Part shown: positions 11,075 through 12,244 of the stretch, one piece after another | How positions within the stretch are numbered: the first letter of the stretch is position 1 | Layout of the letters: each line of letters opens with the position of its first letter | Source: Patescibacteria group bacterium | Lineage (GTDB): Bacteria > Patescibacteriota > Minisyncoccia > Phycocordibacterales > GCA-2747955 | NCBI GenBank assembly: GCA_048538215.1 | Contig: JBLYPV010000001.1 | Location: 547,526 to 611,525, forward strand | DNA: 64,000 bases | Reading direction: 5' to 3' | The notes under the pieces: generated by a model | Seen by the model: the letters and a program-made list of their open reading frames with translations, nothing else | Told to the model about the DNA's origin: nothing | Databases searched by the model: none | Made by a program: the position numbers and the translations under genes

Positions 11075-12244
11075 ATGACTACTACACAACCAGCCACTAT
11101 TAAGAAATTAGTTTCACCCTTAGCATCGATTATACGAGGTGATGCCGAGAGCACTTTGGGTAGTGTATTATCTCGAGTACGCTCAAGCCATGAAGCAGTC
11201 TTTATTTATAATGATAAAGAAGAATTCTTGGGCCTAGTCTCGCCTTATAAAACACTATATTCAAGTAATTACCCTTATACAACAAAAGTATCATCCATAG
11301 TGTTTAAGCCACCTTTTATTACCAAAGAAACGCCAATCTATGAGGTAGTCAAATATATGCTTGCTGCAAGAATATATGTGCTCCCAGTGTTTGACGCAAA
11401 AGGCAAGATGCGGTCTGTTATTTATGGGCAAGATATATTGCAAGAGATTTTAAGAAATCCAGACCTATTACAATTTGTAAGTAGCAAAATCAAAATAAAA
11501 ACTCCCATAACAGCCCCAATCAACTCTTCGGTAAAAGATGTATTTTATGATCTCAAAGAGAAAGGAAGATCAAGAATAATTGTCGTTACCCCAGAGGGGA
11601 GCTTGGCGGGGATAGCCTCGAGGGGTGACCTTATGCGATCACTCATCAAGCCTACTTCAAAGATGCGCGTCCCCAAAGAGGGATCCCACCTTGGCTGGTA
11701 TTCATTTTCTGGAGAAAAGAAATTTAGAAAAAGTGAGCCTATCGGTATGTATAGCTCAGCACTAGTGGATACTCTACCACAGGAGACTCCAAAGCCAGAA
11801 ATTGTATTGCATCTTATTGCTTCTCCGCACAATAGTATTGTGCTCACAGATAAGAATAATAAGCCAACAGGCTTTCTCTCTACCCGTGATATTTTTCAAG
11901 CACTGGCACTTTTGCGACCTAAAGCCCAAGTTTCTATCAATATTCAGAATCCAAGTAAGGATGTAAGCAAAGAGGAGCTCGAGCAAGCTCGAAAGCATTT
12001 GGAGCTATTTGGGAAAAAAATTAAGAAACGCCTAGGCATTAACATGATTGATGTGAGTACCAAGGGCCCAAAAAATCCACAAGGTCAGGTAAAAATGTTT
12101 AACACTACAGTAATACTGACGCCCACCTCTGGCAATGCTTTAGTCGCCCTCACTAAAAACAGGAAATATCTTGATGGGATACAGGAAGCCACAAAATTAA
12201 TTGAAAAACAACGCAAGCGAAGTGACCTCTCGAGGGGTAAATAA
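11075..12244 (+). CDS. CBS-domain protein fused to a C-terminal ribosome hibernation factor (HPF/RaiA, S30EA)-like domain
   Basis: Residues ~1-270 show repeated CBS-like beta-alpha units; C-terminal ~110 aa (VSINIQNPSKDVSKEELEQARKHLE...TVILTPTSGNALVALTKNRKYLDGIQEATKLIEKQRKR) match the HPF beta-alpha-beta-beta-beta-alpha pattern. Confidence 0.5.
   Translation: MTTTQPATIKKLVSPLASIIRGDAESTLGSVLSRVRSSHEAVFIYNDKEEFLGLVSPYKTLYSSNYPYTTKVSSIVFKPPFITKETPIYEVVKYMLAARIYVLPVFDAKGKMRSVIYGQDILQEILRNPDLLQFVSSKIKIKTPITAPINSSVKDVFYDLKEKGRSRIIVVTPEGSLAGIASRGDLMRSLIKPTSKMRVPKEGSHLGWYSFSGEKKFRKSEPIGMYSSALVDTLPQETPKPEIVLHLIASPHNSIVLTDKNNKPTGFLSTRDIFQALALLRPKAQVSINIQNPSKDVSKEELEQARKHLELFGKKIKKRLGINMIDVSTKGPKNPQGQVKMFNTTVILTPTSGNALVALTKNRKYLDGIQEATKLIEKQRKRSDLSRGK

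Follow-up and report, generated by a model that had tools for sequence, protein, structure and literature searches.

The stretch of DNA analysed here (the window) comprises 64,000 nucleotides (nt) of contig JBLYPV010000001.1 from a Patescibacteria genome (GCA_048538215.1). It harbors a gene in which an N-terminal array of CBS domains is joined to a C-terminal domain of the HPF/RaiA type, referred to below as the CBS-HPF gene (Table 1). The encoded protein is identical to an NCBI entry annotated as 'MAG: CBS domain-containing protein [Patescibacteria group bacterium]' (MAG, metagenome-assembled genome). The gene product probably belongs, as a bacterial (Patescibacteria) member, to the HibA/AHA ribosome hibernation factors, and its most likely function, by analogy with these archaeal factors, would be that of an adenylate-binding factor that clamps idle 70S ribosomes.

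Table 1. The CBS-HPF gene, its domains and the features upstream of it, in window coordinates (ORF, open reading frame; aa, amino acids; pLDDT, predicted local distance difference test; PTC, peptidyl-transferase centre).
Feature	Position	Strand	Basis or remark
tRNA-Arg(TCG)	10105-10177	+	upstream of the CBS-HPF gene
tRNA-Gly(TCC)	10600-10671	-	upstream of the CBS-HPF gene
Promoter-like site TCCACA-18 nt-TATAAT, with TG extension	10976..11005	+	about 70 nt upstream of the ATG; consensus scan
Complete coding sequence, HibA/AHA-like protein	11075..12244	+	ORF list; ATG start, 389 aa and stop
CBS1, residues 8-63	11096..11263	+	confident in the AlphaFold2 model, missed by Pfam; degenerate
CBS2, residues 70-128	11282..11458	+	Pfam stretch, AlphaFold2 model, alignment to HibA
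CBS3, residues 140-191	11492..11647	+	best Pfam CBS stretch (141-191); aligns to HibA 'GLVTLHD'
Extended basic loop, residues 192-222	11648..11740	+	position homologous to the HibA 'PTC loop' and AHA 'loop 3'
CBS4, residues 223-281	11741..11917	+	Pfam, AlphaFold2 model; aligns to HibA 'GILTVKD'
C-terminal HPF/RaiA-like domain	11918..12223	+	fold and family-level profile matches
Short basic C-terminal tail (DLSRGK) and stop	12224..12244	+	low pLDDT

The reading frame is single and uninterrupted. Its G+C content (GC) and the G+C content of its third codon positions (GC3) are typical of the window, and this composition gives no support to a recent horizontal arrival of the gene in the source genome. 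The near family consists of 44 sequences, the window protein and 43 homologues of 40-65% identity, which align with it end to end. A distant set of 120 representatives, 20-46% identical to the query and verified as full-length, keeps the same two-domain architecture throughout. An exhaustive HMMER search against 1.84 billion cluster representatives (clusters at 50% identity) returned 211 clusters with E<=1e-30; among the best 150 of these, nearly all are 365-420 aa long, with coverage that runs from about residue 5 to near residue 385. Eight family representatives measure 266-301 aa; they begin with Met, stop directly after CBS4 and may be either stand-alone CBS tetrads, analogous to archaeal CM-5/SriA, or truncated gene calls. 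That the fusion is an assembly or annotation artefact, a chimeric contig or two genes joined by a frameshift as the original prediction had allowed, is hardly conceivable. Nothing in favor of it was found in the ORF list, the homologue alignments or the composition, the gene is intact, and the architecture, which the prediction had proposed to look for in relatives, recurs at full length throughout the near family (44) and the distant set (120), which come from independent assemblies, one of them the complete Kuenenia chromosome CP049055.1.

Pfam detects only CBS domains in the window protein (PF00571, E 2.1e-21), in three stretches that represent three of the four CBS units. NCBIfam yields sub-threshold CBS-containing families and no HPF family, no HPF model was matched in the single-sequence Pfam scan, and neither scan detected a DNA-binding domain. 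An AlphaFold2 model derived from the 44-sequence alignment is of good confidence (mean pLDDT 83.9) and contains four CBS units, which form a tetrad over residues 1-281; the CBS repeats first proposed for the N-terminus are thereby confirmed. In Foldseek searches against the PDB, the tetrad was matched to other four-CBS tetrads over about 285-300 columns. The top match is SriA on the Methanosarcina ribosome (9znf_4, E 1e-15); next come SSO3205, Dri on the Pyrobaculum ribosome, MJ1225 and AMPK-gamma.

In CBS domains, the ribose of the nucleotide is recognized by Ser/Thr...Asp pairs, as described for ARC. CBS3 of the window protein carries the canonical nucleotide-site motif G179-x-x-S182-R183-x-D185, with D185 kept in 113, G179 in 105, R183 in 104 and S/T182 in 101 of the 120 representatives. 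The CBS4 motif, P264-x-G-x-x-S269-x-R271-D272, is conserved at S/T269 (115/120), P264 (114/120) and L274 (111/120), and at D272 in 61/120. The pairs S182/D185 and S269/D272 align with those of HibA. A Lys replaces the ribose-binding Asp in CBS1, and the Ser/Thr of the pair is lost in CBS2, which fits a site at the CBS3/CBS4 junction, either single (as in HibA) or double (as in AHA). By homology with the archaeal complexes, adenine nucleotides are expected there; nothing found here points to S-adenosylmethionine, which had been offered as an alternative ligand. CBS1 also contains an SSH motif (S37-S38-H39, nt 11183-11191) that is invariant in the near family and still forms the majority residue set across the 120 representatives, at a place where HibA has DPD. 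In these alignments, the motif appears as a clade-specific feature.

The C-terminal domain is strongly basic (net charge +12) and adopts the HPF/RaiA fold. When its model alone was searched with Foldseek, hibernation factors took all of the first 15 places (best E 5.5e-5, TM-score up to 0.74): chloroplast pY/PSRP1, the HPF proteins of Borrelia, Listeria, Acinetobacter, Mycobacterium, S. aureus, E. coli and Vibrio, RaiA, and Coxiella factor Y. Double-stranded RNA-binding domains rank clearly behind these top 15-16 structural neighbors. At the family level, PF02482 (Ribosomal_S30AE) matches 61 of the 120 full-length representatives (best E 1.5e-8) and, of 30 C-terminal domains taken in isolation, 9 (best E 1.3e-4), and besides CBS and PF02482 no Pfam family recurs in more than 4 of the 120 members. 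The S30EA/HPF-like C-terminus of the original prediction is thus borne out by fold and by family; of the Pfam assignments suggested with it, CBS was obtained for the window protein itself, whereas PF02482 was obtained for half of its family and not for the window protein. In hhalign comparisons, a profile restricted to the C-terminal domains of the 120 members matches HibA's C-terminal domain at a probability of 95.6% (E 1.2e-8, 91 columns, essentially no indels), E. coli RaiA with 92.5% and E. coli HPF with 88.1%. The alignments to the two E. coli proteins contain gaps of 3-5 residues at the alpha1-beta2 junction and in the beta2-beta3 hairpin (both sequences were checked against the PDB; RaiA differs at one residue outside the aligned core). 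Helix alpha2 bears an IE(K/R)Q motif common to the window protein, HibA, RaiA and HPF, and Q379 in this helix is kept in 98/120.

Across the full length, the best PDB sequence relatives of the window protein are chains of ribosome complexes. The 44-sequence profile matches P. abyssi HibA (9sr9_H; entry 9SR9 is 'HibA-ATP' in the HibA paper, PMC13324472) with E 2e-25 in one stretch that spans both domains (66-387 versus 63-375). The 120-sequence profile matches the same chain with 173 bits and E 7.6e-50 (14-380 versus 11-370), as well as 9l96_a, a 406-aa archaeal ribosome-bound chain of the CBS+HPF type, with E 3e-36 (18-382 versus 12-381); its matches to Dri and Sri are confined to the CBS part. 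When the bacterial family was aligned to 14 HibA sequences of Thermococcales with hhalign, a probability of 99.3% was obtained (E 1.7e-20, 343 collinear columns), most of the signal coming from the tetrad (E 1.4e-20). Sequence identity to HibA is about 19%. One family member carries the IMG label 'CBS domain-containing protein/ribosome-associated translation inhibitor RaiA'.

HibA (P. abyssi PAB0961, Thermococcus barophilus TERMP_00697; PDB 9SR9-9SRF and 9T7H; Nat Commun 2026, PMC13324472) belongs to a family that was named Hib in a 2025 preprint, and AHA (bioRxiv 2026, PMC12934967) is the same archaeal family under another name. These proteins consist of a four-CBS module and an HPF/RaiA domain, their role in hibernation was shown by cryo-electron microscopy, knock-outs and translation assays, and they bind AMP, ADP and ATP experimentally (PMC13324472, PMC12934967). 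In AHA, two AMP molecules occupy the CBS3/CBS4 junction and the HPF domain lies on the 30S subunit (PMC12934967). The architecture had initially been taken not to belong to a described family, a statement superseded by these publications of 2025-2026. The AHA preprint even mentions 'a small number' of bacterial homologues, mainly from Patescibacteria, that fall inside the archaeal AHA cluster and are uncharacterised there (PMC12934967).

The window protein is collinear with HibA from about residue 14 to about residue 380, with the same domain order, linker position and overall length. It shares with HibA the four-CBS disc, the aligned ribose-binding Asp of CBS3 and CBS4, a long loop after CBS3 with KP, RF and GEK motifs, the IE(K/R)Q motif in the last helix and, without indels, the long beta2-beta3 hairpin of the HPF domain. 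These likenesses bear on whether the fusion arose twice. A CBS tetrad could have been joined to a resident bacterial HPF within Patescibacteria, giving a protein of separate origin that works like HibA/AHA. PF02482 is matched by those 61 bacterial members and by 0/14 Thermococcales HibA, other bacterial HPF variants have been described as CBS fusions, and the bacterial clade is large and distinct, the near-family profile giving 93 bits to HibA versus at least 170 bits to family members. However, the 0/14 figure comes from one archaeal order only, the collinearity runs through both domains, the tetrad carries a loop of the HibA type with common motifs, the C-terminal profile fits HibA better than E. 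coli RaiA or HPF (4-5-residue gaps), and the bacterial sequences are placed inside the archaeal AHA cluster (PMC12934967). Such a convergent fusion is therefore unlikely. Because the C-terminal profile matches the HibA domain without indels, the sequences favor a single fusion origin common to HibA/AHA.

In HibA, loop 190-207, inserted in CBS3, mimics the CCA ends of tRNA in the PTC (PMC13324472), and 'loop 3' of AHA enters the PTC in the same way (PMC12934967). The loop of the window protein at this position comprises 31 residues, has a net charge of +5 and is modelled with low pLDDT. It aligns to about residues 188-210 of HibA, with the PTC loop inside, shares the motifs KP...RF...(A/S)GEK and carries a 9-residue insertion relative to HibA. 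Across the 120 representatives, its median length is likewise 31 and it is among the best-conserved segments of the protein (E/D214 104/120, R198 103/120, F/Y211 97/120, P193 96/120, F/Y199 95/120, R/K218 87/120, P222 82/120). By position and motifs, loop 192-222 is the counterpart of the PTC loop and of loop 3, and its insertion into the PTC is predicted. The conservation of this counterpart is also relevant to a role away from the ribosome, in which the protein would act as a regulator built on a CBS tetrad (such as a metabolic or transcriptional sensor like HhpR/CM-3) with a C-terminal alpha/beta domain that binds another RNA or protein. Such a role is quite improbable, given that the structural neighbors of the C-terminal domain are hibernation factors, that half of the family matches PF02482, that the best full-length PDB relatives are two ribosome-bound CBS+HPF proteins, and that no DNA-binding domain was detected by Pfam or NCBIfam.

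The architecture and folds, the full-length homology to HibA, and the family-wide conservation of the loop and of the CBS3/CBS4 ribose sites are direct observations, and the archaeal factors provide a mechanism to which they may be fitted. The basic C-terminal domain would occupy the 30S decoding centre and the mRNA/tRNA channel, the four-CBS disc would fill the tRNA path on the 50S subunit, and loop 192-222 would be inserted into the PTC. In this way, one polypeptide could block both active centres, hold the idle 70S ribosome together and shield its active centres. The PTC and decoding nucleotides involved are universally conserved. By analogy, the bacterial protein would be expected to bind ribosomes, inhibit translation, bind nucleotides and switch in a nucleotide-dependent manner. 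For the last of these, AMP at CBS3/CBS4 may bias binding and ATP may bias release, tying ribosome storage to the energy state. HibA binds AMP with a dissociation constant of 12 uM, tighter than ADP and ATP (PMC13324472), and ATP releases the related ARC factors. This energy switch is the weakest step of the mechanism.

A simpler arrangement was that of the original prediction, in which only the C-terminal domain touches the 30S subunit and the CBS part senses adenylates or dimerises. Adenylate sensing is the classic role of CBS modules, the S/T...D pairs of CBS3 and CBS4 are conserved, and the N-terminal module of HibA is mobile, being found in three positions on the 50S subunit (PMC13324472). 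Against this stands the binding of the tetrad itself to the 50S subunit in HibA, AHA, Dri and SriA, and the conservation of the basic loop would be unexplained if it made no ribosomal contact. An HPF-only effector with a passive sensor is accordingly a very remote prospect. The adenylate-binding module of that model stands, but the CBS part is probably not only a sensor, as the tetrad of HibA/AHA binds the 50S subunit and its loop enters the PTC. Similarly, the coupling of both activities in one polypeptide is upheld as regards the CBS-HPF fusion, whose archaeal counterparts are proven hibernation factors, and only tentatively as regards the energy-charge switch, which is weak even in archaea: the binding of HibA was not visibly altered by AMP or ATP, although factors of the ARC type are released by ATP.

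Several points weigh against assigning the protein to the HibA/AHA family as a hibernation factor. The C-terminus of the window protein has no PF02482 match, even at E<=10. The near-family C-terminal profile alone found nothing significant among PDB sequences, reached an hhalign probability of only 11.6% against the HibA C-terminal domain and was not significant against E. coli HPF. It was only the more diverse 120-sequence profile that gave significant C-terminal-only matches. At the sequence level, the C-terminus of the window protein is too diverged, and the HPF assignment for this protein therefore rests on predicted structure and on transfer from the family level. The loop is at least 9 residues longer than in HibA. 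Several contacts of HibA use the archaeal-specific eS28 and the long tail of uS19 (PMC13324472); the bacterial ribosome lacks both, so the contacts must differ in detail. AMP and ATP have no visible effect on the binding of HibA to the ribosome in vitro (PMC13324472), which makes the energy switch weak even for the archaeal prototype. No conserved gene neighborhood pointing to a translation role was found at 25 homologue loci, and the function of the bacterial members is argued from archaeal homologues. The archaeal host typical of the HibA/AHA family is also absent, as the protein comes from a Patescibacteria MAG, but this is a taxonomic and not a molecular feature.

With a single narrow peptide pattern, homologues were found in 25 GTDB species representatives, labelled Saccharibacteria, Roizmanbacteria, Shapirobacteria, WWE3, Nealsonbacteria, Wildermuthbacteria, Minisyncoccales and Parcubacteria; Beckwithbacteria also occur among the sampled homologue labels. 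Eight homologue loci bear the unconfirmed label 'uncultured Gammaproteobacteria' (Third Party Annotation, TPA, co-assembly bins). The proteins encoded there share 28-65% identity with the Patescibacteria protein, and one of the contigs measures 760 kb; the labels could be mistaken, or the family could reach further. A 65%-identical orthologue lies in the complete chromosome of Candidatus Kuenenia stuttgartiensis (CP049055.1, 4.33 Mb, at about 2,142,209-2,143,393), where it is flanked by transposase genes (DDE_3, Y1_Tnp of IS200/IS605, and DDE_Tnp_1). The upstream side of this copy differs in a second locus (L028). The transposase-flanked copy indicates a recent acquisition and horizontal spread outside Patescibacteria. 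It documents that a hibernation factor has recently passed between bacteria that are not related. As Kuenenia can be enriched, the protein could be studied there.

More tentatively, the Patescibacteria proteins may be regarded as an old, phylum-wide bacterial CBS-HPF lineage that acts on the bacterial ribosome via its longer PTC loop, rather than as stray archaeal transfers. The authors of the HibA study infer a transfer of the HPF domain from bacteria to archaea (PMC13324472). Since the HPF domain of the bacterial proteins resembles canonical bacterial HPF more than the one in Thermococcales HibA does, the lineage could lie close to where the HPF domain, or the entire fusion, crossed between Bacteria and Archaea, and it may replace or complement canonical HPF/RaiA in such reduced genomes. 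Taken as a whole this proposal is rather doubtful, and the archaeal comparison covers one order (Thermococcales, 14 HibA). Loss of HPF is common in small genomes, and within the window, about a tenth of the 622,806-bp contig, no HPF-like ORF that could be a second, canonical HPF was found. RaiA is required for the growth of Southlakia epibionticum (PMC11665869); not all Patescibacteria lack canonical hibernation factors. Patescibacteria alternate between a free, starved state and growth attached to a host, and control of translation is considered central to this alternation (PMC11665869).

The CBS-HPF gene stands alone downstream of the two tRNA genes. Downstream of it lie genes for a Gmad2/Germane-domain protein, a UPF0102 (YraN-like) protein and MiaA. 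None of nine window neighbors (0/9) recurs near the 25 homologues, and no neighbor cluster is present in more than 3 of these loci, apart from spurious antisense ORFs, so a conserved operon was not found. The sole recurring translation-related neighbor is a gene for a protein like elongation factor P (EF-P), directly upstream of the CBS-HPF gene in three more distant Patescibacteria loci (e.g., 5366-5941 in locus L021). The promoter-like site of Table 1 is weak evidence, 8 such sites having been found in the consensus scan versus 5.1 expected. No obvious Shine-Dalgarno (SD) sequence precedes the ATG, and no riboswitch or other known RNA was found upstream, where Rfam found the two tRNAs only. 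The spacer before the CBS-HPF gene contains a 77-bp tandem duplication (10663-10827, 2.1 copies, 98% identical) that repeats the region just upstream of tRNA-Gly, its first bases overlapping the 5' end of this minus-strand gene; as a tandem repeat, it was rejected as a flanking att-like pair. Between the two tRNA genes, a spacer of about 420 bp (10178-10600) has no credible ORF; it includes GC-rich, structured-looking stretches and, directly after tRNA-Arg (about 10181-10206), a hairpin followed by a T-run. Rfam found nothing in this spacer, even at E<=1.

Elsewhere in the window, a block at 1-6900 has a GC of 0.25-0.37, versus about 0.43 in the rest, and contains genes for a family-11 glycosyltransferase, an FkbM methyltransferase and a Polysacc_synt flippase. 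The block resembles a variable island for surface glycans; a further Polysacc_synt flippase gene (6904-8142, GC 0.47) lies outside it. At 15906-18737, a 943-aa VirD4/TraG-like coupling-protein ATPase (TrwB_AAD_bind, TraG-D_C) is encoded, and at 60397-60813 a protein bearing the N-methylation motif of type IV pilins; each is typical of the DNA-uptake/pilus machinery of Patescibacteria. Near the end of the window, a run of ribosomal protein genes includes L23 (62305-62592), followed by a 297-aa ORF (62613-63506) and by a glutaredoxin/GST_N-like ORF (63608-63907) at the place where uS19 would usually come after uL2.

Several known systems share parts of this protein. In bacterial HPF, RaiA (YfiA) and plastid pY (PSRP1), all of PF02482, the HPF domain stands alone (short HPF/RaiA, about 95-115 aa) or is N-terminal (long HPF), whereas in the window protein it is C-terminal and fused to a CBS tetrad of about 280 aa; the bacterial CBS-HPF family also has extra residues at the alpha1-beta2 junction and in the beta2-beta3 hairpin. 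Long HPF has a dimerisation domain, which is absent from the window protein (Pfam, AlphaFold2), so that 100S formation by this route is not expected. Dri, SriA-D and ARC-A/P (PDB 9E6Q/9E7F, 9ZNF/9ZNG/9ZNI) resemble the window protein in the fold and sequence of the CBS tetrad. These factors bind the ribosome at tRNA sites, and adenylate binding with ATP-triggered release was shown for ARC. In contrast to the window protein, they are tetrads without an HPF/RaiA domain, Dri consisting of two tetrads and Sri and ARC being separate proteins. AMPK gamma/SNF4 has the four-CBS fold with adenylate sites at CBS3/CBS4 but is a subunit of a kinase heterotrimer, with no HPF domain, PTC loop or ribosome binding.

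The closest system remains HibA/AHA, from which the window protein differs in its host, a bacterium whose ribosome lacks eS28 and the long uS19 tail, in its longer loop, in a degenerate CBS1 with the SSH motif, in a C-terminal tail shorter than the approximately 17-residue tail of HibA that nears the SD:anti-SD helix, and in the PF02482 matches of its family. The CBS-HPF architecture and its role in hibernation are already known from Archaea (2025-2026), and Patescibacteria homologues are mentioned in print. The additions made here, a large bacterial clade that spans many Patescibacteria lineages, a conserved and longer PTC-loop counterpart and the Kuenenia copy, are modest. Nevertheless, a factor that has been considered archaeal is frequent and diverse among Patescibacteria, which offer a natural test of whether a dual-subunit clamp with a PTC-inserting loop can work on a bacterial ribosome without the archaeal-specific contacts. 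Compared with the small number of bacterial homologues noted for AHA, the bacterial clade comprises the 211 clusters and 120 verified full-length members described above, together with the copy in Kuenenia.

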